Assembly (NCBI RefSeq): GCF_058153355.1
Contig: NZ_CM177019.1
Length of the DNA: 64,000 bases
Direction: 5' to 3' (one strand)
In this document: one piece after another, positions 46,660 to 62,701 of the stretch
Position numbering within the stretch: the stretch's first letter is position 1
Layout: the number at the start of each line of letters is the position of its first letter
The notes under the pieces: model-generated
Databases searched by the model: none
Told to the model about the DNA's origin: nothing
The model's input: the letters and a program-made list of their open reading frames with translations, nothing else
Position numbers and translations under genes: made by a program

Positions 46660-46775
46660 TAATTGTCGCGAAACTGTCTGGATTGTGAGCAAAGGCGCAG
46701 GAATTCAGACACTCTCACTTATCACTTCATGGAATGAGGGTTACCATACCCGGATTGCATTGACAGGAGATGTCC

Positions 46776-47819
46776 ATGAGCGAGAACTCGATTCGTTTGA
46801 CCCAATACAGCCACGGTGCAGGTTGCGGCTGTAAAATTTCCCCAAAAGTGTTGGAAACCATCCTGCACAGTGAGCAGGCGAAGTTTGTTGATCCGAATTT
46901 GCTTGTGGGTAATGAAACCCGCGACGATGCGGCGGTGTACGATCTGGGCAATGGCACCAGCGTTATCAGTACCACCGACTTCTTTATGCCGATCGTTGAT
47001 AATCCTTTCGATTTTGGCCGCATTGCGGCGACTAACGCCATCAGCGATATCTTCGCGATGGGTGGCAAACCGATTATGGCGATTGCGATCCTCGGCTGGC
47101 CTATTAACAAACTTTCCCCTGAAATTGCCCGCGAAGTAACCGAAGGTGGACGCTATGCATGCCGTCAGGCGGGTATTGCGCTGGCTGGCGGTCACTCCAT
47201 CGATGCGCCGGAGCCGATTTTTGGTCTGGCGGTAACGGGGATCGTACCGACCGAGCGGGTGAAGAAAAACAGTACTGCACAAGCCGGATGCAAACTGTTC
47301 CTGACGAAACCGCTGGGAATTGGCGTTCTTACTACGGCTGAGAAAAAATCACTGCTGAAACCAGAACATCAGGGACTAGCGACGGAAGTGATGTGCCGGA
47401 TGAACATCGCAGGCGCGTCCTTTGCCAACATCGAAGGCGTAAAAGCGATGACTGACGTGACTGGTTTTGGTCTGCTGGGGCATTTGAGCGAAATGTGTCA
47501 GGGTGCTGGTGTGCAGGCGCGAGTCGACTATGAAGCGATCCCGAAACTGCCGGGGGTTGAAGAGTACATTAAGTTGGGCGCAGTGCCTGGCGGCACCGAA
47601 CGTAACTTTGCCAGCTATGGGCATCTGATGGGTGAAATGCCGCGTGAAGTGCGCGATCTGCTGTGCGATCCGCAAACTTCTGGCGGTCTGCTGCTGGCGG
47701 TCATGCCGGAAGCAGAAAATGAGGTCAAAGCTACAGCCGCCGAGTTTGGCATTGAACTGACGGCGATTGGCGAACTGGTGCCAGCGCGCGGCGGTCGTGC
47801 CATGGTTGAGATCCGTTAA
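46776..47819 (+). CDS. selD: selenide, water dikinase (selenophosphate synthetase)
   Basis: ORF 46770-47819; start at ATG 46776 ([30 protein letters not shown]...) giving 347 aa; Cys17 in the glycine-rich loop. Confidence 0.95.
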
Positions 47820-49799: not shown

Positions 49800-52158
49800 G
49801 TCGGGTAGCAGCGATTCATTACTGTCTCGCCGCCCCCTAAGAACGGTACGTGCGAGTTTCCCCGCATACCGCTCAAGCCTTTATAAGCCTCCACCTTGTG
49901 GGAGACCAGCGTCATTACTATGTAGTTGTCGATGGCAGTTGGGATGGAGTAGGACTAAATTGCTCACATCATCGCTACCGCCAAGAGATTTCTTGAGCAA
50001 ATGATGAACATTCCATCCTGTATCGCGATTAATCGGTTGCTCACATAAAGGGCAGCGCGATCCTTGCCTTTTCCATATAGCGAGAATCCTTTTCTGCCCC
50101 TGTTGGGATTTCTTCCATGAGTAGTCCAGCCTTCTTTCGAAGTATGTTTCCCACTCGGGATCATATGGATTTGCCGTTCCCTTTATTTTTATATAGCGAT
50201 TAATATGGATGTCGCTGGCCCGGGACAGAACATATTTCCTACCCTCCGGATCGACTCCATAAAATCGACCATGACACATTTTTATTGTCGTGTGGTACTT
50301 TCGGAAGATCCATCTCCGGCCTTTGCCGGGATGTCTCCTTCTGCACCACTGCCAGATTTTGCGCCAGATTTGGTTGTCGACATAGTTAAATGTCTCTGCC
50401 GATGCTACATGTTGGTGATAGTTTGCCCACCCGGTGATGATTGGATTAAGCAGATTTATTAGCACCCATGCAGGAACCGTTCGGTTACCTTCAATAGTCT
50501 CTCTGATCTTGCTAAGAAATTGTTTAACGTTTTTCTTGGCTGGTCTGATTATGAGTTTTCTACCGAAGCGTCGGACGTGCTGCCCAAGGAAATCAAATCC
50601 GTCAGTAATGTGAGTGATGACCGTTTTCTCTTCGGATAACGTCAGCCCTCTTTCTGCAAGAAATGATTTCACCAACGGAAGAACATTCTCCTCCAGAAGT
50701 TCTTTCGACTTTCCGGAAATGATGAAATCATCAGCATACCGGACGAAGTGAACCTGATGTTTCCTGAATGTTTTTGAGCGTTTCGGACCAAAGCGATTTT
50801 GCAGCAGTCTTTCCAGTCCATCCAGGGCCATGTTTGCCAGAACTGGAGATATGATTCCTCCCTGGGGTGTACCCGAGAGAGTTTTGCTGAATATGCTTTT
50901 TTCGATGATCCCGGCTTTCAACCAATTACGGAGTATTTGCTTGTCCATAGGAATATTTTCAAGCAGCCACTCGTGGCTAATGTGTTCAAAGCATCCTTTA
51001 ATATCGCCTTCCAGAACCCATTTCGAGGCGTTCCGGGAACTATACATATTACATACCTGTTGAATGGCGTCAGCCGTACATCGCGCTGGTCTGAAACCAT
51101 AACTGTTGTGATCTGCATTAGTTTCCGATACAGGCTCCAATCCCAGCAGATGCAGGGCCTGCATTGCCCTGTCAAGCATGACGGGGATTCCTAATGGTCT
51201 TTTCTTGCCATTAGATTTGGGTATAAAAACTCTTTTTAGCGGTAGGGGCTTGTACCCTTTTCGCCTGAGTTTGAATATCGCTTCCCATTTTGATTCTGGA
51301 GTACTCCAGATTTGACCATCAACTCCGGGGGTTTTACGCCCGCTATTTTCCGTAACTCGTTTCACCGCCAGTGCTCTGGCGCTGAATGAGCGAACCAGCA
51401 ATCGTTGCAATCTACCGACTGTACGCCATTGCTGGTTACATGCCGCCTTTGCGATTCTTGTCTGTATGGTTTTAACGTGTTGATGGCATTTCTTCCAGTT
51501 AATGGAATGCCAACCTTTTCCGTTGATGACCGCAGTTACATTGTTAGATGTAATTTTCATACATGTCATCCAAAGAAACCTTCGCAGATGTTTCGCAATT
51601 AAAGACCAGATGGAAGTCAGCACGGTTTCCCGTTAAGGCAAATATTGAACCTCTATCCGCACGATTACAGTCCGGCTTTCGCTTTTTCCATCCTCCTTTA
51701 CCCGCATTCTCATCAGTTTGCCTTACGGTGCCCCTGCCACTAGGGCGAGAATTCGGGCTTACCAAGTTCCGACCAACATACAAAGAACGGGTTAGGTTCT
51801 GTCTATCCGCCGGGGGAGTTATTGTCCATGTATTCCCACTACGAACAGGAATAGCCTTACCCCTTACCTTTTGGTGCAAGCCTATCAGCATCTTTGGCTC
51901 GTTCTCTGTTACGACGTTTAACGACAGTTCACTATGTTAACCATACCGCCCAGCCTAGCGCTCTCGCCGCATGATGCTTGTAGCGATCAGGTTTTCTCAC
52001 GATTAACTGAAGCAATATTTGCTAAGCTACATTGTCCCAAGGGCTTCAGACAGAGCCGTTACCAGCTTTGCCTGCCTCAGTAGGCTACAACTAATGGAAT
52101 AGTTGGTTTTATATAAATAATTTATCAAAACAATATGTTGGACGACTTCTTGTCGCAC
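49800..52158 (-). mobile_element. group II intron, full length with intact intron-encoded protein (boundaries approximate, +/- 10 bp)
   Basis: Minus strand: 5' end GTGCGACAAG... at 52158; about 535 nt of domains I-III; ORF in domain IV (49881-51560); canonical 34-nt domain V GAGCGGTATGCGGGGAAACTCGCACGTACCGTTC at 49842-49875 (AGC triad, GAAA tetraloop) 6 nt after the ORF stop; short domain VI ending about 49800. Confidence 0.85.
49881..51560 (-). CDS. group II intron reverse transcriptase/maturase with C-terminal HNH endonuclease domain
   Basis: ORF 49881-51623; likely start MKITSNNV... at ATG 51558-51560; RT block with YADD catalytic motif (VHFVRYADDFIISG), maturase X region, and HNH/En motif (CPLCEQP...WNVHHLLKKSLGGSDDVSNLVLLHPNCHRQLH). 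Confidence 0.88.
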   Translation of the reverse strand: MKITSNNVTAVINGKGWHSINWKKCHQHVKTIQTRIAKAACNQQWRTVGRLQRLLVRSFSARALAVKRVTENSGRKTPGVDGQIWSTPESKWEAIFKLRRKGYKPLPLKRVFIPKSNGKKRPLGIPVMLDRAMQALHLLGLEPVSETNADHNSYGFRPARCTADAIQQVCNMYSSRNASKWVLEGDIKGCFEHISHEWLLENIPMDKQILRNWLKAGIIEKSIFSKTLSGTPQGGIISPVLANMALDGLERLLQNRFGPKRSKTFRKHQVHFVRYADDFIISGKSKELLEENVLPLVKSFLAERGLTLSEEKTVITHITDGFDFLGQHVRRFGRKLIIRPAKKNVKQFLSKIRETIEGNRTVPAWVLINLLNPIITGWANYHQHVASAETFNYVDNQIWRKIWQWCRRRHPGKGRRWIFRKYHTTIKMCHGRFYGVDPEGRKYVLSRASDIHINRYIKIKGTANPYDPEWETYFERRLDYSWKKSQQGQKRILAIWKRQGSRCPLCEQPINRDTGWNVHHLLKKSLGGSDDVSNLVLLHPNCHRQLHSNDAGLPQGGGL

Positions 52159-53800: not shown

Positions 53801-54073
53801 GTGAGTCGAGCATTGTTCGCCCTAGCATTGGCATTTCCATTCATTGCACTGGCTAACCCGCATTATCGTCCGGACGTGGAGGTGAACGTACCGCCAGAAG
53901 TGTTCAGTTCAGGCGGGCAGTCAGCGCAGCCCTGTACTCAGTGCTGCGTTTATCAGGATAAAAATTATTCTGAAGGGGCGGTAATTAAAGCCGAAGGAAT
54001 ACTCCTGCAATGCCAGCGGGATGACAAAACCCTTAGCACTAATCCGCTGGTCTGGCGGCGCGTAAAGCCATAA
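53801..54073 (+). CDS. ynjH: DUF1496 secreted protein
   Basis: 90-aa ORF with signal peptide (MSRALFALALAFPFIALA); divergent from gdhA; 3' end overlaps nudG by 35 bp. Confidence 0.85.
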   Translation: MSRALFALALAFPFIALANPHYRPDVEVNVPPEVFSSGGQSAQPCTQCCVYQDKNYSEGAVIKAEGILLQCQRDDKTLSTNPLVWRRVKP

Positions 54074-54532: not shown

Positions 54533-55153
54533 GTGTTAGACCGCCATCTTCATCCCCGAATTAAACCTTTGTTGCATCAGTGTGTGAAGGTGCTGGATAA
54601 ACCCGGCATTACGCCAGATGGTTTAACATTAGTGGGATTTGCCATCGGCGTGCTGGCACTGCCGTTTCTGGCGCTGGGCTGGTATCTGGCGGCGCTAATC
54701 GTCATTTTGTTGAACAGGCTGCTGGATGGTCTGGACGGCGCGTTGGCGCGGCGAAGAGGACTTACCGACGCGGGTGGCTTTCTCGATATTTCTCTCGATT
54801 TTCTTTTTTACGCACTGGTGCCTTTTGGGTTTATCCTCGCCGCACCGGAGCAAAACGCGCTGGCAGGCGGCTGGCTGCTGTTTGCGTTTATCGGCACGGG
54901 CAGCAGTTTTCTCGCTTTTGCTGCGCTGGCGGCGAAACATCAGATTGATAATCCCGGTTATGCGCATAAATCGTTTTATTATCTGGGCGGGTTAACCGAA
55001 GGCAGCGAGACGATTTTGCTGTTTGTTCTGAGTTGCCTCTTGCCAGCTTATTTTCCGTGGTTTGCGTGGGTATTTGGTGCGTTGTGCTGGATGACGACCT
55101 TTACGCGGGTGTGGAGTGGGTATCTGACGCTGAAGTCGCTCCAGCGCCAGTAA
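54533..55153 (+). CDS. ynjF: CDP-alcohol phosphatidyltransferase-family membrane protein
   Basis: ORF 54527-55153; start placed at second GTG 54533 (5 nt after SD AAGGAG) giving 206 aa; D-G-x2-A-R...G-x3-D motif region (LDGLDGALARRRGLTDAGGFLD). Confidence 0.85.
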   Translation: MLDRHLHPRIKPLLHQCVKVLDKPGITPDGLTLVGFAIGVLALPFLALGWYLAALIVILLNRLLDGLDGALARRRGLTDAGGFLDISLDFLFYALVPFGFILAAPEQNALAGGWLLFAFIGTGSSFLAFAALAAKHQIDNPGYAHKSFYYLGGLTEGSETILLFVLSCLLPAYFPWFAWVFGALCWMTTFTRVWSGYLTLKSLQRQ

Positions 55154-55161
55154 TTGCAATG

Positions 55162-56469
55162 TTATTTGCTGCTGTCCGGGCCGCGCTCACCGGTTGCTAC
55201 GGGATTTTTCGGATCGCTGCTCCATTCGTACCAGCCGCCGTCGTAAACGGAGACGTTATTCCAGCCCATTGCTCGTGCGTACATAAAGGTTTCGGACGCG
55301 CGCCAGCCGGTGCCGCAGTAGAATGAAACTTGCTGATCTGGTTTGATATTCCATGCTTTCCACATAGCGGCAATATCATCGGCGCTACGCATGGTGCCAT
55401 CCGGGTTATGGAAATCCTCCATATGCGTCGAGTCGCTACCAGCGTGTCCCCAACGGGCTCCGGCTATTTCACCTTTTGGCTTAATATAGCTGTAACCACT
55501 GGTCGTACCGATAAATTCTGGCCACGAACGAATGCTCACCAGCGATGCATCCTGGCGATGCAGCAGCCCACGGGCCTGTTCCATATCAAGCATCAACTGC
55601 GGTTGCGCCGGGATCTTCACGCCGAAATCCGGTTCAGCTTTCACTTTCGGTGGCGTTCCGCGCTCAACAGGCAGTCCCGCGTCGGACCAGGTTTGCCAGC
55701 CGCCGTCCAGCAGGCGCACATCTTTCACCCCTGCATAGAGCATAATCTGTGCTACACGCGCTGCTGCGTATACATCACGACCATATAGAATCACCGTGGT
55801 GTCATGACGAATGCCATGCTTTGCCAGCATCGCTTTCAGTTGTTCATCAGAGACTTTATTCCACAGCGGTTCGCTTTCCACTTCATTGGTATCGATGTAA
55901 TCCGCGCCGGGAATATGGCTGATAAGGTAAAGCTTAGGAGCGCCCCAGGCCGCTTCAATGACTTTCCAGTCACCGGCAGGTTTCGCCGTAACCTCTTTAC
56001 CCTGTTGCAGGTCATGCAGCCATTGCGGATAAACCAGCTGCTCAAAGTGCGGCAGTTTTTGCAGACGGGAAGGTTCGCTTAGCGCGTCACTCAGGATGGA
56101 GATATGCGTAAAACCTGCTTTTTGCAGTCGCGTTTTGACGGCGTCGACATCTTTGTCATTACCGTACAGCGCCACCGGAGCGTCGGTTTTCAGGTTATGT
56201 TGCTTGATCCACGCGTTGAGCTGTTCGGTGCTCATTTTGTCGAGCCAGCTAGCAGAGAGGTTTAAGGCGGCAGGTTCATGACCAGAAGGGCCATTTAAGG
56301 TTTGTGGCCAGCCGTTATAAAACGCGCTGGGGCGAGTATCTATCGCTTTGCCATTTTGTTGTTGAAGCTGGTCAAGTGTAAGAGGCTTCGCCAGTTCAGC
56401 GGCCCACGAAGAAGCGCAAGCCAGCCCTAAAGCCATTGCCAGCGCGGTCATTTGAGAAACACGTTTCAT
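55162..56469 (-). CDS. ynjE: periplasmic sulfurtransferase with tandem rhodanese domains
   Basis: ORF 55162-56484; start at ATG 56467-56469 (MKRVSQMTALAMALGLACASSWA...) giving 435 aa with signal peptide; active-site Cys loop (CGTGWRAS). Confidence 0.88.
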   Translation of the reverse strand: MKRVSQMTALAMALGLACASSWAAELAKPLTLDQLQQQNGKAIDTRPSAFYNGWPQTLNGPSGHEPAALNLSASWLDKMSTEQLNAWIKQHNLKTDAPVALYGNDKDVDAVKTRLQKAGFTHISILSDALSEPSRLQKLPHFEQLVYPQWLHDLQQGKEVTAKPAGDWKVIEAAWGAPKLYLISHIPGADYIDTNEVESEPLWNKVSDEQLKAMLAKHGIRHDTTVILYGRDVYAAARVAQIMLYAGVKDVRLLDGGWQTWSDAGLPVERGTPPKVKAEPDFGVKIPAQPQLMLDMEQARGLLHRQDASLVSIRSWPEFIGTTSGYSYIKPKGEIAGARWGHAGSDSTHMEDFHNPDGTMRSADDIAAMWKAWNIKPDQQVSFYCGTGWRASETFMYARAMGWNNVSVYDGGWYEWSSDPKNPVATGERGPDSSK

Positions 56470-56535
56470 CGAAAATCCCGACATTGTAGTTTTGAGTGCG
56501 CCATTCTGAACTGACGCATTGGGAAAAACTTTGCG

Positions 56536-57189
56536 TTATCGCAGTTTGTTGTAATTTTCTGACCACTGCGCCATATCCAGAACAGAACTATCAGCAGGAA
56601 CATCCTGGAGATCGTGCGTTACCTGAACGACGGGGATCGCCAGTTCGCGAACTTCGCTGAACACCCACTGGCGAAAATTATCGCGCAGAGCTACATCAAG
56701 ACGGCTGAACGGCTCATCCAGGAGTAACGCTTTTGGCTGGGCGAGAAGGGCGCGTAGCAGAGCAACGCGCGCTCGCTGACCACCAGACAAAGTGGCAGGA
56801 TCCTGATGGAAAGCTCCGTCAAGGCCTGAACGCTCAAGTGCATCATTCACGGCATTACGTCGGGCATTCCCCTTAAGTGTCTCCGGTAGCGCCAGCAATA
56901 AATTTTGCCCGACGCTGAACTGGTCAAATAACAGCGCATCCTGGAAAAGAATGCCAATCTGACGCTGTGCGGTGGGTAGCATGTCAATCCGTTGCTCATT
57001 GAGCCATAGCTCACCTGTACAAGAAAACTGTCCTGCCAGCGCACCAATCATCCATGAAAACAGAGAAGATTTACCACAGCCTGAGGGACCCATTAACGTG
57101 ACAATGTCACCTTTATTGACCGTAAAGTTAACGTTTGTCAGCAAAGGCCTTTCAGGCAAACGTAGCGAAACATCTTTCACGCAGAGCAT
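56536..57189 (-). CDS. ynjD: ABC transporter ATP-binding protein
   Basis: ORF 56536-57276; start at ATG 57187-57189 (MLCVKDVSLRLPERPLLTNVNFTVNKGDIVTLMGPSGCGKSSLF...) giving 217 aa; Walker A, signature LSGGQRARVAL, Walker B LLLDEPFS; 1-nt overlap with ynjC stop. Confidence 0.9.
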   Translation of the reverse strand: MLCVKDVSLRLPERPLLTNVNFTVNKGDIVTLMGPSGCGKSSLFSWMIGALAGQFSCTGELWLNEQRIDMLPTAQRQIGILFQDALLFDQFSVGQNLLLALPETLKGNARRNAVNDALERSGLDGAFHQDPATLSGGQRARVALLRALLAQPKALLLDEPFSRLDVALRDNFRQWVFSEVRELAIPVVQVTHDLQDVPADSSVLDMAQWSENYNKLR

Positions 57190-58724
57190 TAGCGGAGTCC
57201 TTGTCTGACATAACCTACCCATTTTGCAAGCAGGGCGGTCAGGGCAAAAATAATAAGCGGTAATAGCAGTTGCCAAAGGGCCTGGGCAGCGAGAATACCG
57301 TTACTGCCGCCGCTGCTTAATGCCACCGCTTCAGTGGTGAGCGTCGGAAAACGCCCCGCGCCCAGCCACAGCGTCGGCATATACTGCGCAATACTGACTG
57401 AAAATCCCACCGCGAAGGTAATCAGCGCAGGGCGCAACATGAGTGGGCATTTCACGTAAAAGAAGATTTTAGCCCGCGACCAGCCCAGTGTTTGCGCAAT
57501 CAAAATTAACCGTGAATCAATGCGCTGCCAGGCGGGTTGCAGGATAAACAGCATCCACGGCATTACCCACAGCAGATGCCCCCAGACCACCGCTGTCCAG
57601 CTCCCATCTATGTTCAGCCATAGCGCCAGCATGTACTGGCCCGCCACCAGCGGCAGAGCGGGTAACAATATGGGCAACCATAGCCAGAATTGCCTCCGTA
57701 GTGATCCCCATTCCAGCCAGGCCAGTAACAGGATTAAAGCGAGAAACGTCGCGGTAAGTCCCATCGTCAGGCTGTTGATGAGCGCTTCACTATTGATCGT
57801 CGACTGATCCGCGAGGATCGCCAGCAGAGCCACACAGAGCACACCGGTTAAGGGTAAAAAAATCGCCAGTGTATTACCGGGTAATAAAGGCGTGGCGTGC
57901 TTACGAACGCCATCTTCCTGGGGGATCGTGCGTCGCCAGGCGCGCCATAACAGATAACCCAGCAAAACGTAGGCGGCGAGTAACAGCATCAGCAGCAGGC
58001 TGGCAAGCGCGCCTTTTGTCTGTTGGTCAATGCCACCCTGGGTTAGCCACTGCCAGCTAATTACCGCCAGCGTCGGTGGATTACCCGGCCCGAGAATAAT
58101 TGCCACATCCACGACCGACAACGACCATGCCACAATAGCCAGCATCGCCATTGCCAGTGCAGGCGCGACGGAGGGCAACAACAACCAGTTCAGACATTGC
58201 CAGCGGCTGTAGCCCAGCGAATCCAGTACAATAACCTGCTGCAACAGCCGTTTCTCGCTCAATACTGCCGCTAAGATCCACAGCAGAAATGCGCTTTCTT
58301 TCACCGCCAGGGTAAGGCCCAGCCCAATACCCAATTTATCCATCGGCGGAGTGAGAAAAGGAAAAAACTGATAAACCAGGCCACCTTCAGCAAACAGCAA
58401 CAGGGCGCTGGTGGCAAAAGCCACATGGGGAATGGCGAGCAGCCACGGCAGACGGGCGCACATACGCTGCCATTTCGGCCCAGGCCACAGCGCCATAATT
58501 ACCAGCAGGGCAATCGTCAATGCGCCGAGCGCCGCGATGGTTGTTGACACCAGCGTCGCCAGTAATGCCTGCGGTAGCTGCGGATCGGCAAATAACGCCT
58601 GCCAGTGTGCCAACGACAAAGCAGGCGATATCAGCGTGAACGCCGCCGGAATCAGCGGTGCGTAAATCACCGCCATCAGTGACCACAGCAGAAAGATTAA
58701 TGCGTACCGTAACGGCGTAGCCAT
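57189..58724 (-). CDS. ynjC: ABC transporter permease (fused two-domain)
   Basis: 511-aa multi-TM ORF; overlaps upstream ynjB by 28 bp and ends 1 nt into the ynjD start. Confidence 0.88.
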   Translation of the reverse strand: MATPLRYALIFLLWSLMAVIYAPLIPAAFTLISPALSLAHWQALFADPQLPQALLATLVSTTIAALGALTIALLVIMALWPGPKWQRMCARLPWLLAIPHVAFATSALLLFAEGGLVYQFFPFLTPPMDKLGIGLGLTLAVKESAFLLWILAAVLSEKRLLQQVIVLDSLGYSRWQCLNWLLLPSVAPALAMAMLAIVAWSLSVVDVAIILGPGNPPTLAVISWQWLTQGGIDQQTKGALASLLLMLLLAAYVLLGYLLWRAWRRTIPQEDGVRKHATPLLPGNTLAIFLPLTGVLCVALLAILADQSTINSEALINSLTMGLTATFLALILLLAWLEWGSLRRQFWLWLPILLPALPLVAGQYMLALWLNIDGSWTAVVWGHLLWVMPWMLFILQPAWQRIDSRLILIAQTLGWSRAKIFFYVKCPLMLRPALITFAVGFSVSIAQYMPTLWLGAGRFPTLTTEAVALSSGGSNGILAAQALWQLLLPLIIFALTALLAKWVGYVRQGLR

Positions 58725-59863
58725 TCTTGTTCCAGCGCATTTACCCAGCCAGCATGCGGTTCCGCCAGTACCGGCGGCAGATCCTGCGGCATTCTTGATT
58801 GTAAAGTTTCACGCTGCCCGGCAGGCAGTTTTTGTGGATCGAGAACCGATGGATCACCCCAGACAGCAGGATCTGCCTTACGTAGCTGTGCATCAGGTGA
58901 GAGCAGGAAATTGGCAACCACCTTCGCCGCAGCACTGGCATTCGCGTTGGCAGGAACGGTGACGAAATGCACGTTGCCAATCATCCCCTCGCGAAAGCCA
59001 AAACTGTAACTGCTTGCTGGCAATTCGCCACTGGCGATTTTTTGCTGGGCATGTGCAGGATTAAAGGTCAGCGACAGGCGCAATGTGCCAGTTTTCAGCA
59101 GAGCATCCATCCGCGCGGGCGAAGGTGGGAAATCCTTTCCTTCGCGCCATAGATACGGATGCAGCGCATCAAGATATTGCCACAAGGGCGCAGTGATACG
59201 GGCGAAAGTCGCATCGTTCGGCGCTTTCTTTAATGCTGCGGGATCTGGCGTCAGCATAATCAGTAACTGTTCAAGAAATGCGGTGCCAGTAAAGTCTGGC
59301 GGGCGCGGATAGGTAACCGTGCCAGGATTGGCTTTAGCGAATTCCAGTAAGGCTTGCGGTGTTTGTGGTGGCAGTGGCGTAACATCGCGGCGGGCGATAA
59401 ACGTCAGTTGTGCGCCGCCCCACGGCGATTCTGCGCCTTCGACAGGTACAGAAAAATCTTCCCGTACCGGCAGTTGTGTATCGACATAACGCCAGTTTGG
59501 CAGAGTCTCAGCCCAGCCGGTTTGCAGTAAATTGGCCTCTTTTAAGGTGCGGAAGTTTTCGCCGTTCACCCAGAGCAGATCCACCGAACCGCCTGTCTCG
59601 CGCCCGGCTGCGGCTTCGGTCTGAATGCGCTTCACCGCGTCTGCGGCATCCGCCAGGCGGACAATCTTCAGGTTTATATCATAATGGGTTTTCATCTCGC
59701 CGCTAACCCAGTCGAGATAGCGGTTAATTGCGGTATCGCCGCCCCAGGCGTTAAACCAGACGGTTTGCCCTTTGGCCTCATTTTTAACTTCCTGCCAGTC
59801 ACTGGCATGTGTTGCCAGAGAAAACAGCGATAACAATCCCAGCAACCACCCACAATGGCGCAT
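58697..59863 (-). CDS. ynjB: ABC transporter periplasmic substrate-binding protein
   Basis: ORF 58697-59866; signal peptide MRHCGWLLGLLSLFSLATHA; start at either of two adjacent ATGs (59863 or 59866). Confidence 0.88.
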   Translation of the reverse strand: MRHCGWLLGLLSLFSLATHASDWQEVKNEAKGQTVWFNAWGGDTAINRYLDWVSGEMKTHYDINLKIVRLADAADAVKRIQTEAAAGRETGGSVDLLWVNGENFRTLKEANLLQTGWAETLPNWRYVDTQLPVREDFSVPVEGAESPWGGAQLTFIARRDVTPLPPQTPQALLEFAKANPGTVTYPRPPDFTGTAFLEQLLIMLTPDPAALKKAPNDATFARITAPLWQYLDALHPYLWREGKDFPPSPARMDALLKTGTLRLSLTFNPAHAQQKIASGELPASSYSFGFREGMIGNVHFVTVPANANASAAAKVVANFLLSPDAQLRKADPAVWGDPSVLDPQKLPAGQRETLQSRMPQDLPPVLAEPHAGWVNALEQEWLRRYGTH

Positions 59864-59872
59864 CATCTCTCC

Positions 59873-60421
59873 TTAAGAACGTTTTTCAGGAATACGGCAC
59901 AGCCCCTGAGCGGGAATGTCCATGGCAGAATTAAAACGGGCTGACAGGTTTTGCAGGCCGATCAATGCCGTCAGTTCGGTGAGCGCCTGGGCGTCAAAAT
60001 GCGCAGCCAGTCGGGTACGCAGGGCATCATCGACCGTTGGCGGCGTTACGCTTGCGGCTTCGGCGTACTCCAGCGCCAGCCGTTCTTCATCGCTAAAGAG
60101 CGGGCTTTGCCGCCAGTCAGCCACTGCCAGCAGTTTATCGGTGCTGCCAGTGCGCTCGGCGACTTTCATACTGGTGATATCCACGCAAAATTCACACAGG
60201 CACATTTGCGCAATGCGTGCGCTGACAAGCGATCGCACTACCGGATCGAGCGGTGAGCGTTTACGCTCCAGCCAACCGACAAACATCGACACCAGATAAA
60301 AGATAAACGGGATCCGTCCCCACCAGCGAATTGGACTTAGCACCTCGCCGTAATGGCGACGATGCAGCCACGCCTGCGGACGTAAACTTAAAGGAATTTT
60401 GCTAAGCGGTGGTAAACCCAT
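59873..60421 (-). CDS. ynjA: carboxymuconolactone decarboxylase-family (AhpD-like) protein
   Basis: 182-aa ORF; AhpD-like Cys pair (QMCLCEFCVDI); start overlaps the ydjZ stop. Confidence 0.88.
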   Translation of the reverse strand: MGLPPLSKIPLSLRPQAWLHRRHYGEVLSPIRWWGRIPFIFYLVSMFVGWLERKRSPLDPVVRSLVSARIAQMCLCEFCVDITSMKVAERTGSTDKLLAVADWRQSPLFSDEERLALEYAEAASVTPPTVDDALRTRLAAHFDAQALTELTALIGLQNLSARFNSAMDIPAQGLCRIPEKRS

Positions 60422-61128
60422 CAGGCATTCCTCTTCTGGCGTTCAAGCCATATTTTTTTCGCCATAAAAATCACCACGGTCAGGGCAAACAGAATAAACA
60501 GTCCGGTGACAAACCAGAAGGTACCGCCCGTTAACATACTGCCCGCCCAGGAATAAACAATAGTCGCCGGTAATTGACCAAGCCCGGTGGCGATAAAAAA
60601 CGAGCGAAAACGTATTGACGTCAAACCGGCAGCATAGCTGATTGGATCGAAAGGGACAAAAGGCAATAACCGGCATACCAGGATAGTGTGTTTGCCGTAG
60701 CGAGTGAAAAAGCCGTCCATACTGTCAAGCACGGTTTTACCGGTTAATTTTTCCACCACTTCGCGGCCCATCACTCTGGCGATAAAAAAGCATAGCGCCG
60801 CGCCTGCCATAGAACTGGTCCACGACAGCAAGCCCCCCCAGAACGCGCCAAACAACGACGCATTAGCAAAGGTAATTAAAAACGCAGGCAGCGGTGCAGC
60901 AATGGCCTGTAAAATCATCAAAATGAACGAGACAACGGCTGCCAGTGCGCCGTAAGACTGAATAAAGCGCTCTATACCCTGTTGGTCCACGGCGGCAAAC
61001 GCCGCAACGCTGCGATTGATAAACTGATGGACGCCGGGAAGCAGTGCCCATGCCAGCAGCATAGCGAACAACAGGATGATGAGGGTTATACGGTAGTACC
61101 AGATTTTACGCGATTGCATCTTCATCAT
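60421..61128 (-). CDS. ydjZ: TVP38/TMEM64 (DedA-related) inner membrane protein
   Basis: 235-aa multi-TM ORF MMKMQSRKIWYYRITLIILLFAMLLAWALLPG... Confidence 0.88.
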   Translation of the reverse strand: MMKMQSRKIWYYRITLIILLFAMLLAWALLPGVHQFINRSVAAFAAVDQQGIERFIQSYGALAAVVSFILMILQAIAAPLPAFLITFANASLFGAFWGGLLSWTSSMAGAALCFFIARVMGREVVEKLTGKTVLDSMDGFFTRYGKHTILVCRLLPFVPFDPISYAAGLTSIRFRSFFIATGLGQLPATIVYSWAGSMLTGGTFWFVTGLFILFALTVVIFMAKKIWLERQKRNA

Positions 61129-61142
61129 CCTTTATCGTGGCT

Positions 61143-61820
61143 TTATTCGGTGATTTTAAAGGTAACCGTAGCCAGCGTGTTATCTGCCGGGAGAACCGAG
61201 GCATTGCCTTTGAATTGCACTTCACCACGTTTTTCCACCGCACCATAAGTGTATGTTGCATTGCTGACGATGCCGACCGGGCAGCTATCCAGACATACCA
61301 GGCAGCCCGTTTTCTTCTCTTCTGCGGCGGCTAAATTACCGCCAAAGCGCATGTCCAGTTTTTTACCGTTATTGTCGACAATCACCTCATCGAATGAATA
61401 CGCTTTTGCTGCCCCTTGCCAGTTGACCGAAATATCCAGTTTGCTGCCCGCTACATGAGTCGTTTCTTTATTATCCATCGTCATGTTTTCGCCCGGGATA
61501 CCACCGGCTTGTTTCAGTGCTTCATAAAATGCTTTCGGGGTCGCATAACCCATAAACAGCGATTTATGTCCGTTGGAGCCATCTTTAAACACTATGCCGT
61601 GTCGAGTGTCGTCTGTCAGGAAACGGCCATTAATTTGTACCAGCATGGTGACCGTATGGTTATTGGTATCGACACGCAGTGGTTGGCTGTCTGAAAGACC
61701 GTCGTATTCCACTTTTGCTGCCGCATTCTCTTTTTGATCGCAGCCACTAAGCCCCGCAACGGCCAGTAAACACAGTGCAGCCAGTCCTTTTTTCCATGAC
61801 GCTGAATAATGTTGCAACAT
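61143..61820 (-). CDS. ydjY: exported lipoprotein-like protein with C-terminal CxxCxxxC motif
   Basis: ORF 61143-61982; start at ATG 61818-61820 (MLQHYSASWKKGLAALCLLAVAGLSGCDQ...) giving 225 aa; lipobox LSGC; C-terminal CLVCLDSCP. Confidence 0.85.
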   Translation of the reverse strand: MLQHYSASWKKGLAALCLLAVAGLSGCDQKENAAAKVEYDGLSDSQPLRVDTNNHTVTMLVQINGRFLTDDTRHGIVFKDGSNGHKSLFMGYATPKAFYEALKQAGGIPGENMTMDNKETTHVAGSKLDISVNWQGAAKAYSFDEVIVDNNGKKLDMRFGGNLAAAEEKKTGCLVCLDSCPVGIVSNATYTYGAVEKRGEVQFKGNASVLPADNTLATVTFKITE

Positions 61821-61824
61821 CGTT

Positions 61825-62535
61825 CTATCCTTCTTTTTTTGGGTGAGTAAGTGGGCTGCGGCGCGAAGCAGACAGATCCACGTGTTTGTGTCGGGCGTAG
61901 AGTTTGGCAAGCTGGACGAGAATAAACAGTGCAAGGCCCGCCAGACAGAGTTGTAAAATAAAGCGCAGCGTAATGCCTTCACTGGCGAGATCGCTGGCCA
62001 TCACGGTATAAATAACGATACCGGGCAGGGTAGTGAGTGCCGAAATAAAGGTATAAGGCCAGAAGGCGATAGTGGTTAATCCGTAGGCGTAATTTTGAAT
62101 ATTGTAAGGAAACAGCGGGATTAAGCGGGTAAGAATTAAAAAATCGATACCGTTATGTGCAATGCCTTTTTCAATGGCCTGGAAGGTATGGCTGTGACCA
62201 ACGTATTTCAGCAATAAATCGCGCCCCAAAAAGCGTGCCAACAGGAATGAACTCGAGGAGGCCAGCGTAGCGGCAATTAATGAGAGTAGTGTCCCTAAGA
62301 TCGGGCCAAAAACTATGCCTCCAGTGATCACCAGTATGCTTCCTGGTAACAGAAAGAGGGTGGCAATGATGAATAACACAATATAAAGGCAATAACCGAA
62401 CAATCCGCTCTGGCGAATGAGAGTTTGTAAGTGGGGTAAATCGGTGAGCAGATCGAATAAACCGCAAGCGTGGATAGCGTAAATGACCAGCGCAAAAATA
62501 AAACAGGCAAAAAGAAATTTACGCTCAGCGTTCAT
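61825..62535 (-). CDS. ydjX: TVP38/TMEM64 (DedA-related) inner membrane protein
   Basis: ORF 61825-62583; start at ATG 62533-62535 (MNAERKFLFACFIFALVIYAIHA...) giving 236 aa; paralog of ydjZ. Confidence 0.88.
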   Translation of the reverse strand: MNAERKFLFACFIFALVIYAIHACGLFDLLTDLPHLQTLIRQSGLFGYCLYIVLFIIATLFLLPGSILVITGGIVFGPILGTLLSLIAATLASSSSFLLARFLGRDLLLKYVGHSHTFQAIEKGIAHNGIDFLILTRLIPLFPYNIQNYAYGLTTIAFWPYTFISALTTLPGIVIYTVMASDLASEGITLRFILQLCLAGLALFILVQLAKLYARHKHVDLSASRRSPLTHPKKEG

Positions 62536-62701
62536 TGTGGAGTTTCCTATATCAAACTTGATAATAGAGAAGTGGTCAGACAACTAAAAACGCTGTGACG
62601 GTATAACAAAGGACGACAAGCAACAAATCATTACTGACAGTTTGTTGATTTTTCTCAAGGTTAATTCTCCTGACTCCGTTTGAGCCAGGAGAGCAGCTAA
62701 A

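Follow-up and report, generated by a model that had tools for sequence, protein, structure and literature searches.

Among described bacterial systems, YeeE/YeeD, which takes up thiosulfate, and the selenium-associated YedE/YedF pair a membrane carrier with a cysteine-bearing TusA-type acceptor for chalcogen. Here, we compared with these and other systems a locus in a 64,000-nucleotide stretch of DNA (contig NZ_CM177019.1; hereafter, the window), which consists of eight minus-strand genes, ydjX, ydjY, ydjZ, ynjA, ynjB, ynjC, ynjD and ynjE, and of the convergent gene ynjF. The likeness lies in that pairing, and the long selenium type of YedF is itself encoded inside YdjY/DedA operons. However, YeeE and YedE show no sequence relationship to the DedA/VTT proteins, and the ydjX-ynjF system adds an exported rhodanese, a tri-cysteine lipoprotein, an ATP-binding cassette (ABC) importer and a lipid enzyme. 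In the reading that we favour, and to which we give a probability of roughly 35%, the ydjX-ynjD operon together with ynjE and ynjF may form an oxygen-repressed relay that spans the envelope and hands a thiophilic chalcogen, most probably selenium or else sulfane sulfur, between periplasm and cytoplasm.

Other precedents resemble parts of the locus. In Wolinella, the periplasmic Sud protein feeds polysulfide sulfur to a membrane reductase, a similar working with which the locus shares no homology-based membership. On the lipid side, phosphatidylcholine synthase (Pcs) and a choline ABC importer couple import to a CDP-alcohol phosphatidyltransferase (CDP, cytidine diphosphate), as do YnjF and YnjBCD in Bacillota and in locus L090; nevertheless, YnjF scored below the cut-off for every curated synthase. 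MerP-MerT-MerA follows the same logic of a periplasmic cysteine protein, a membrane protein and a cytoplasmic dithiol/disulfide reductase, but the likeness is an analogy only: there is no homology to MerP or MerT and no MerR, and the neighbours of YdjY point to selenium or sulfur, not mercury. Further, fusions of COG0398 DedA proteins to MerA-type enzymes have been reported (Todor 2023), and the fusion partner in YdjY loci is a CCG/4Fe-4S module. Judged domain by domain, each E. coli protein of the locus is an ordinary member of its family.

The locus itself has been catalogued before: every E. coli genome carries an annotation of it, its control by FNR has been published and the structure of YnjE has been solved. 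The subject of an earlier note on this DNA, made from the sequence alone, is therefore not a new element. That note had stated that the locus lacked an assigned role, and a literature search likewise gave no established function. For the nine genes, it returned no function beyond listings in the FNR, BaeR and PdhR regulons, structural and molybdenum cofactor (Moco) work on YnjE, and DedA phylogeny; ydjY, ynjA, ynjB and ynjF occur in the literature solely within gene lists. The locus is among the larger conserved operons without an assigned function in the model bacterium E. coli. The searchable literature appears to contain neither a picture of the system as a whole nor the inclusion of ynjF, the core of YdjY and DedA, the fusions to rhodanese or the selenium/ArsS context.

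Gene order and extent of the locus

Gene coordinates were those of the RefSeq annotation of an E. coli chromosome (98.3% identity), moved onto the window and rechecked against the window sequence. From ydjX to ynjE, all eight genes lie head-to-tail on the minus strand, each open reading frame (ORF) starts with ATG and none contains an internal stop. The computed spacers between successive genes were 4, 14, −1, 9, −28, −1 and 66 bp, so that the order, the spacing and the position of ynjE 66 bp downstream given in the earlier note were matched to the base. Its family calls (two DedA proteins, a CxxCxxxC lipoprotein, an AhpD-like protein, a complete ABC importer and a triple rhodanese) agreed with Pfam and NCBIfam.

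Conversely, that note had drawn the boundary of the unit at ynjE, which was too narrow. The gene ynjF (54533-55153, plus strand; 206 aa) is convergent with ynjE, their stop codons being 8 bp apart, and since variant loci described below tie it to its neighbours, the unit is wider than ydjX-ynjE, with ynjF as a probable member.

YdjY and its DedA partners

The gene ydjY (61143-61820, minus strand; 'lipoprotein YdjY' in RefSeq) encodes a predicted inner-membrane-anchored periplasmic lipoprotein of 225 aa, the sole family match of which was NF040466, ydjY_domain (also PF27149), with 139.5 bits against a cut-off of 50. It carries a Sec-type lipoprotein signal, without a twin arginine, in which the lipobox LSGC is followed by aspartate (...VAGLSGC-D-QKEN). 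An aspartate at position +2, directly behind the lipobox cysteine, retains a lipoprotein in the inner membrane, where YdjY is predicted to stay. Its three cysteines (C173-x2-C176-x3-C180, within a GCxxCLDSCPVG motif) were invariant over 47 lineages, as were H74 and M113. A solved structural relative of YdjY was not found. We also considered YdjY as a 4Fe-4S ferredoxin, a label given in some sources and rejected here because the motif is incomplete (CxxCxxxCP only instead of CxxCxxCxxxCP, with no cysteine at the first position and no Fer4 match in Pfam) and the protein is Sec-exported.

The family is rare: the YdjY profile matched 393 clusters (at 50% identity) out of 1.84 billion representatives. 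The YdjY proteins of E. coli, Bacillota, Campylobacterota and Desulfobacterota share approximately 50% identity, which suggests lateral spread. Domain fusions joined it to rhodanese in four proteins, to VTT in two and to a fatty-acid hydroxylase in one.

The flanking genes ydjX (61825-62535, minus strand; 236 aa, TVP38/TMEM64 family in RefSeq) and ydjZ (60421-61128, minus strand; 235 aa) encode predicted DedA/VTT inner-membrane proteins, matching PF09335 with 89.9 and 87.1 bits, respectively (cut-off 33.9). YdjZ is the best-kept partner of YdjY. Its orthologues adjoin YdjY across phyla at E values of 1e-60 to 1e-83, and about 60 of its residues, M71, M107 and C113 among them, were at least 95% conserved over 26 lineages. 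YdjX is far less constrained, and YdjX-type partners are found in many YdjY loci. Both proteins share the VTT/DedA domain with the UptA flippases and with eukaryotic TMEM41B/VMP1; nevertheless, they scored 25.7 and 36 bits against the UptA equivalog, the DedA flippase of undecaprenyl phosphate (UndP), with a cut-off of 250, and a role as a DedA UndP flippase was ruled out on these scores. This is in line with a preprint that places YdjZ in COG0398, a subfamily without the residues for UndP binding and proton coupling (the acidic/basic re-entrant loop), which resembles eukaryotic scramblases and is most commonly fused to mercuric-reductase-type oxidoreductases (Todor 2023).

The invariant Cys3-His-Met set of YdjY and the Met-Met-Cys set of YdjZ are also compatible with the handling of a soft metal (Cu(I), Hg, Zn or Cd), in which YdjY would be a metal-binding lipoprotein and YdjZ would conduct the metal, by analogy with MerP-MerT-MerA. 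The fusions of COG0398 proteins to mercuric-reductase-type oxidoreductases point the same way, as do a cobW fragment adjoining YdjY in Finegoldia and a mild induction of ynjABCD by BaeR overproduction (PMC2731931). However, that induction did not exceed 1.4-1.6 fold, and the authors of the study considered it indirect. In the neighbourhood survey described below, no metal regulator, efflux pump or metallochaperone recurred among the clusters common to at least three genera, and neither the rhodanese fusions nor the SelD/YedF context would be expected. We regard soft-metal handling as distinctly improbable.

YnjE, YnjA and the YnjBCD importer

The gene ynjE (55162-56469, minus strand) encodes a predicted periplasmic rhodanese of 435 aa with three rhodanese stretches. 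It matched the PDB entries 3ipo and 2wlr at E values of 1e-285 or better, the chains of which begin at residues 20-23, past the signal peptide. The second-best solved relatives were the 460-aa sulfurtransferases 6ktv and 6h98 (E ~1e-88 over residues 33-427), which we take to be EanB. EanB is a rhodanese that forms a C-S bond in anaerobic ergothioneine synthesis; YnjE, by contrast, is exported whereas EanB is cytoplasmic, and no eanA-type methyltransferase gene lies near YnjE. The product name in RefSeq is thiosulfate sulfurtransferase; published assays of the periplasmic protein detected no thiosulfate:glutathione activity, and its physiological substrate was called unclear (PMC10215317).

For YnjE, and by extension for the operon, a supply of sulfur for molybdopterin synthesis is the function given in some databases. 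YnjE has indeed been labelled 'molybdopterin synthase sulfurtransferase' with reference to earlier biochemistry (Myers 2013, PMC3688515), and control by FNR would fit anaerobic molybdoenzymes. Nonetheless, YnjE is exported to the periplasm while Moco is made in the cytoplasm, a ΔynjE strain showed normal Moco-dependent phenotypes with 6-hydroxylaminopurine (HAP) and chlorate (PMC3831636), and no moa, moe or mog genes recurred in the neighbourhoods. We consider this the least probable of the explanations, and very remote.

On the cytoplasmic side, ynjA (59873-60421, minus strand; 182 aa) has a start codon that overlaps the ydjZ stop by 1 nt. Its AhpD/CMD-like product matched PF02627 (CMD/AhpD) with 36.5 bits against a cut-off of 23 and bears the CxxC motif CLCEFC. 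The top NCBIfam match of YnjA was 'YciW-related (seleno)protein', with 101 bits and an E value of 5.8e-29, under the cut-off of 310. YnjA is confined to Enterobacterales, where it is paired with ynjF in two variant loci.

The three remaining genes encode a periplasmic substrate-binding protein (ynjB, 58697-59863, minus strand; 388 aa), a fused double ABC permease (ynjC, 57189-58724, minus strand; 511 aa, its start overlapping ynjB by 28 nt) and an ABC ATPase (ynjD, 56536-57189, minus strand; 217 aa, its start overlapping ynjC by 1 nt). YnjB matched the substrate-binding protein family PRK11622 with 559.6 bits against 203, YnjC matched PF00528 with 27.5 bits against 26.4 and YnjD matched PF00005 with 102.5 bits; YnjBCD thus makes up a complete binding-protein-dependent ABC importer encoded in one operon. 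YnjC showed likeness to PhnU2, CysT and ModB, each below cut-off, and its counterpart in Bacillota is two separate genes. All matches of YnjB and YnjC to the thiamine, sulfate, molybdate, polyamine and phosphonate importer equivalogs fell far below their cut-offs, and no sequence relative of YnjB was found in the PDB. Structure modelling, which the earlier note had proposed for predicting the YnjB ligand, gave the fold of a cluster-D substrate-binding protein but singled out no ligand: the Foldseek neighbours (PhnS, PotD/F, FbpA, AfuA, TbpA and MctA, at about 15% identity) span six ligand classes. The invariant residues of YnjB are aromatic, acidic or amide, with no cysteine among them. Bacillota loci and L090 likewise encode YnjB orthologues that belong to PRK11622.

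Neighbourhoods of YdjY across phyla

The YdjY alignment was scanned over one genome per species, which yielded 80 loci. In these, ORFs were called and searched with the eight window proteins, the remaining ORFs were clustered, and recurrent clusters were named by Pfam and NCBIfam. Of 82 loci, which came from Pseudomonadota, Bacillota, Campylobacterota, Desulfobacterota and Spirochaetia, 79 had a DedA gene of the YdjZ/YdjX type next to YdjY. Orthologues of YnjB, YnjC and YnjF were present in 17, 14 and 11 YdjY loci, respectively, and a YnjE-type exported rhodanese in 15, including those of Campylobacter, Catonella and Peptostreptococcaceae. The YdjY-DedA pair thereby emerges as an ancient module across phyla, in the company of redox proteins and of genes for selenium and sulfur carriers.

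Selenium-related neighbours that scored above cut-off were SelD, the long selenium-type YedF (TIGR03527), SelB, an SclA-like cysteine desulfurase and the DUF3343 selenium/sulfur carrier. In five loci (L022, L081, L082, L078 and L030), and also in Facklamia, such genes (selD, yedF or DUF3343 in the five) adjoin YdjY-DedA on the same strand. SelD was encoded less than 10 kb from YdjY in 5 of about 45 lineages, and YedF was co-located in 8; given an assumed background of 0.6%, the Poisson probability of the SelD co-location is ~1e-5. In Facklamia, a tRNA-Sec gene directly follows the rhodanese gene (L072:11714-11806, L074:11659-11751), selD-yedF-selB-selA come within the next 2-3 kb, and the loci also encode a CcdA/DsbD-type membrane protein and a ResA-like thioredoxin. 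Nearly all of the parts come together in locus L090: one strand encodes VTT, a rhodanese-YdjY fusion, a small transmembrane protein, VTT, YedF and DUF3343, and the other encodes CCG, YnjF, YnjB, two permeases and an ATPase. A protein with a 4Fe-4S dicluster and CCG domains (HdrD/DsrK-like) is encoded as a free-standing gene in Campylobacter, Peptostreptococcus, Catonella and some Bacillota; in Desulfobacterota, this CCG/4Fe-4S module is fused to the YdjX-type DedA (VTT) protein. No selenocysteine forms of YdjY, YnjE, YnjA or DedA were detected, as no in-frame TGA was aligned to a cysteine in these loci.

A second recurrent group comprises ArsS (TIGR04167, 410 bits), the TIGR04282 and TIGR04283 transferases and a nucleoside hydrolase, which were found inside YdjXYZ clusters of 8-9 lineages; in Campylobacter, Facklamia, Catonella, Syntrophus and others, they alternate with homologues of ydjX, ydjY and ydjZ. 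We examined whether sel genes lie nearby merely since ArsS is a selenoprotein; ArsS carries cysteine rather than selenocysteine in these loci and therefore does not explain them.

The same clusters raise the possibility of organoarsenical metabolism (arsenosugar or arsenolipid), in which As(III) would be bound by the three cysteines of YdjY and the system of E. coli would serve to recover an arsenical after its import. Tri-cysteine sites suit As(III), the two transferases are named for 'arsenosugar biosynthesis', and AhpD domains are fused to arsenite methyltransferase in selenoprotein lists. These transferase names, however, rest on co-occurrence rather than on assays; no ArsM, ArsC, ArsB/Acr3 or ArsR recurred across the more than 80 loci examined, ArsM being encoded in no locus, although ArsS needs methylated As(III); and the specific neighbours are selenium genes. 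Moreover, ArsS and both transferases are absent from the window and from the enterobacterial loci, those of E. coli, Klebsiella and Edwardsiella included. The E. coli locus, which has YnjF and YnjA instead, is thus not an ArsS system, since the defining enzymes are missing, and we deem an arsenical role highly improbable.

In several clusters, a lysylphosphatidylglycerol (LPG)-synthase-type flippase domain has one of two partners, a C_GCAxxG_C_C (seleno)protein or a UxxC selenoprotein that resembles PrdB. In YdjXYZ-type clusters of Facklamia and Bacillus benzoevorans (L074:3693-4460 and L069:13115-13876), a PrdB/GrdB-like gene has an in-frame stop within the motif (S/N)PG*YICHQS, which indicates a predicted UxxC selenoprotein; the place of this gene is taken in other Bacillota by one for a C_GCAxxG_C_C (seleno)protein. 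In the Facklamia and Bacillus loci, a selenoprotein encoded in the cluster may therefore account for nearby sel genes.

A small membrane protein of 125-150 aa with about four helices and a WLEMR motif follows YdjY in many phyla (for instance, L019:6145-6540 and L056:3311-3688). In Bacillota, it is the N-terminal extension of a 'long YdjZ' of 390-410 aa. It had no family match, and no counterpart was found in E. coli.

ynjF and the enterobacterial variant loci

YnjF, a predicted CDP-alcohol phosphatidyltransferase, matched PF01066 with 44.5 bits against a cut-off of 22. It reached no curated synthase equivalog, the best being the archaetidylinositol-phosphate and phosphatidylinositol phosphate (PIP) synthases with 64 and 42 bits, respectively.

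Its link to the locus became apparent from variant loci. Klebsiella (K. pneumoniae L086:7651-14958) has VTT-VTT-YnjA-YnjB-YnjC-YnjD-YnjE and a convergent YnjF; this syntenic locus lacks ydjY, which makes YdjY, the best-conserved protein of the cross-phylum module, dispensable or lost there. In a genome labelled Salmonella Choleraesuis (L088), overlapping YnjA-YnjF genes lie opposite VTT-YnjB-YnjC-YnjD-YnjE, with selD-topB 4.4 kb off. Edwardsiella hoshinae also has overlapping YnjA-YnjF genes, along with YnjE and one VTT gene only, and the ABC genes and ydjY are missing. From these three variants, DedA, YnjA, YnjE and YnjF make up the enterobacterial core, to which the ABC importer, YdjY and a second DedA protein are accessory. 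The comparison thus redraws the unit with ynjF and defines a minimal core. Outside this order, YnjF orthologues were present in YdjY loci of at least six Bacillota lineages, often abutting or overlapping ynjB, and in L090 ynjF precedes the YnjBCD genes.

No locus contained both YnjF and the TIGR04282/TIGR04283 pair, and YnjBCD occurs together with either of them, which points to a lipid-linked intermediate or co-substrate; approximately two overlaps would be expected against none seen, an exclusivity that is statistically not strong.

These observations bear on anaerobic remodelling of membrane lipids as an explanation for the locus. YnjBCD would import an alcohol, YnjF would join it with CDP-diacylglycerol to give an unusual phospholipid, the DedA pair would flip the product, and YdjY, YnjE and YnjA would modify or maintain its head group in the outer leaflet. 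Pcs with its choline importer is the precedent. In Enterobacterales, no partner persists more than YnjF, which in other loci shows translational coupling to YnjB or YnjA; the DedA proteins of COG0398 are similar to scramblases of eukaryotes, and LPG-synthase-type flippase domains recur together with the TIGR04282 (nucleotidyltransferase-like) and TIGR04283 (family 2 glycosyltransferase) enzymes; their mutual exclusion with YnjF, with YnjBCD accompanying either, and the one fusion of YdjY to a fatty-acid hydroxylase are also in line with it. Such a pathway, however, leaves unexplained the adjacency of SelD, YedF, DUF3343 and CCG and the rhodanese fusions, minimal loci consist of YdjY and DedA without a lipid enzyme, and the exclusivity carries the statistical limit given above. 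We consider an anaerobic phospholipid head-group pathway rather unlikely, yet a serious rival to the relay or possibly its complement. If it were true, E. coli would make an undescribed anaerobic phospholipid.

A proposed chalcogen relay across the envelope

From the observed gene content, protein families, export signals, FNR control (in the literature and through a conserved site), co-occurrence across phyla and domain fusions, we infer the cargo, the direction of transfer, each transfer step and the role of the lipid enzyme as follows. The exported rhodanese YnjE would carry the element on its active-site cysteine, in persulfide or perselenide form, and the element would be exchanged between YnjE and the three invariant cysteines of membrane-anchored YdjY. 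The YdjX/YdjZ DedA pair, with the Met-Met-Cys set of YdjZ, would pass it across the inner membrane. A cytoplasmic dithiol protein, YnjA in enterobacteria, would then release the reduced element to users such as SelD; in other phyla, the 4Fe-4S/CCG reductase, often fused to DedA, may take the role of YnjA, with YedF and DUF3343 as acceptors. YnjBCD would import a small molecule and YnjF would link an alcohol to phospholipid, and together they may supply a lipid-bound co-substrate or carrier handled by the DedA proteins.

The selenoproteins of E. coli are formate dehydrogenases, chiefly FdhF and FdnG, and are mostly made anaerobically. Selenium is favoured as the cargo because SelD is selenium-specific, the YedF form present is the selenium-associated one and these selenoproteins are anaerobic enzymes, which matches the FNR control of the locus. 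The earlier note had guessed at a substrate containing sulfur or selenium; neighbourhoods and fusions in other phyla lend this guess independent support.

The same relay may instead carry sulfane sulfur, as polysulfide or persulfide, for anaerobic scavenging or detoxification of sulfur in the envelope, with Sud as the precedent. Rhodanese, TusA/DsrE-type YedF, DsrK/HdrD-like CCG and cysteine desulfurase are classical sulfur-trafficking families, SelD is missing from most loci, and YnjE takes up persulfide according to literature cited in PMC10215317. Against sulfur, selenium-specific SelD directly adjoins YdjY/DedA in several Desulfobacterota, the form of YedF present is an NCBI-curated selenium-metabolism protein, and YnjE is essentially inactive with thiosulfate and adds little to cellular sulfane sulfur (PMC10215317). 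On this balance, sulfur as the cargo seems to us unlikely.

Several points weigh against a chalcogen relay as a whole, or against selenium as its cargo. SelD, YedF and DUF3343 adjoin only a minority of the loci, and most of those in Gemella, Finegoldia and Peptostreptococcus consist of YdjY and DedA only; YedF, rhodanese, CCG and the desulfurases are sulfur families as much as selenium families. In Facklamia, the sel genes could be there due to the PrdB-like selenoprotein encoded in the cluster. Klebsiella retains the locus without YdjY. Since a relay needs neither YnjF nor the ABC importer, TIGR04282/TIGR04283 and flippase-like genes, part of the system is left unexplained by it. COG0398 DedA proteins are thought to be lipid scramblases rather than solute carriers (Todor 2023). 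Lastly, the window contains selD (46770-47819, plus strand; 618.7 bits to the SelD equivalog), with topB next to it, at 7.3 kb from its end to ynjE and 6.7 kb to ynjF, but this proximity is weak evidence, as selD may lie near the locus in Enterobacteriaceae through plain synteny, given that the module is located elsewhere in Edwardsiella.

A more specific form of the selenium relay, which we regard as doubtful, would make the locus the enterobacterial form of an undescribed cross-phylum system for selenium acquisition and delivery. Such a system, built around YdjY and COG0398 DedA proteins, would feed selenide to SelD under anaerobic conditions, possibly via a lipid-linked intermediate made by YnjF, and would represent the 'specific' trace-selenium route of E. 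coli. If selenium is the cargo, the locus would name the missing specific bacterial route that captures nanomolar selenium for selenoproteins, and would provide the first physiological role for bacterial COG0398 DedA proteins, the closest relatives of human TMEM41B/VMP1.

FNR control and regulatory regions

Upstream of ydjX, the window contains an FNR-type site, TTGAG-AAAA-ATCAA (62645-62658, minus strand), with one mismatch to TTGAT-N4-ATCAA. Its half-sites were invariant in an alignment of Escherichia, Citrobacter and Klebsiella. In K-12, chromatin immunoprecipitation (ChIP) revealed an FNR peak accompanied by activation, with the ydjX site at −60.5 (PMC3688515). An extended −10-like element, TGTTATAC (62601-62608, minus strand), was read from the sequence as a putative ydjX promoter; it is conserved in the alignment and fits the published FNR spacing. 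Further downstream, just upstream of the ribosome-binding site, the ydjX leader contains the palindrome TATCAAGTTTGATA (62550-62563, minus strand), which is kept in Escherichia and Citrobacter and missing in Klebsiella, and may be an operator.

In agreement with the single operon with coupled translation deduced for ydjX to ynjD in the earlier note, ydjXYZ-ynjABCD has been described as one operon directly activated by FNR (Myers 2013, PMC3688515). The same study defined ynjE as a separate directly FNR-activated unit, with a site at −41.5 in K-12 (PMC3688515). Because of this FNR-dependent promoter of its own, ynjE is co-regulated with the operon but does not share its transcript, and its earlier grouping with the operon stands in the former sense only.

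The control region between ynjD and ynjE (56483-56544, minus strand) was delimited by a promoter scan and a conserved block in the alignment. It contains a promoter-like sequence found by the scan, TTCAGA-16-TACAAT (56483-56510, minus strand), and the palindrome CTGCGATAACGCAA (56531-56544, minus strand), a sequence overlapping the stop codon of ynjD and conserved between Escherichia and Klebsiella. This palindrome matches the FNR consensus poorly, at 5 of 10 positions, and is located where the K-12 data put the ynjE site; no FNR site with two or fewer mismatches was found in the ynjD-ynjE gap of the window.

In addition to FNR and BaeR, PdhR has been connected with the region by genomic SELEX (systematic evolution of ligands by exponential enrichment), which in K-12 gave a weak peak between xthA and ydjX where no PdhR box could be recognised (PMC7660256). 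Rfam searches for riboswitches or leader RNAs gave no relevant match, either in the window (E up to 1) or in 16 homologous loci. In the gap between the ydjY and ydjZ homologues of Catonella morbi (L034:10571-10678), a borderline match to the Rfam Clostridiales-1 RNA scored 49.5 bits against a gathering score of 48.

Conservation and adjacent features of the window

The locus was found in 5424 of 5426 complete E. coli genomes. The earlier description as a core locus, and not an insertion, consequently holds within E. coli, but the neighbourhood comparison showed a patchy distribution across Enterobacterales. Compared with orthologues from E. coli, E. albertii and Citrobacter, the ratio of nonsynonymous to synonymous substitution rates (dN/dS) was 0.02-0.15 for all eight genes from ydjX to ynjE, with the lowest values for ynjA and ynjE; all eight genes are under purifying selection. 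Together with its near-universal presence in E. coli, this shows that the arrangement did not come about by chance. Positions 55000-62600 of the window were 90-95% identical to 5410 of the 5424 E. coli genomes and 98% identical to the other 14, and dS against typical E. coli was 0.4-0.5. This low identity to most E. coli genomes indicates that the window belongs to a divergent or cryptic Escherichia lineage.

Next to ynjF, the 3' ends of ynjH (plus strand) and nudG (minus strand) converge and overlap by 35 bp (54039-54073). In an RNA-seq survey, both nudG-ynjH and ynjE-ynjF were among the convergent overlapping transcript pairs termed 'excludons' (PMC12288877).

Between topB and gdhA, an ORF on the minus strand (49881-51623) encodes a 580-aa group II intron reverse transcriptase/maturase with RVT_N, RVT_1, GIIM and HNH domains. 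This ORF is a mobile intron inserted in this strain, at the position that ynjI occupies in K-12.

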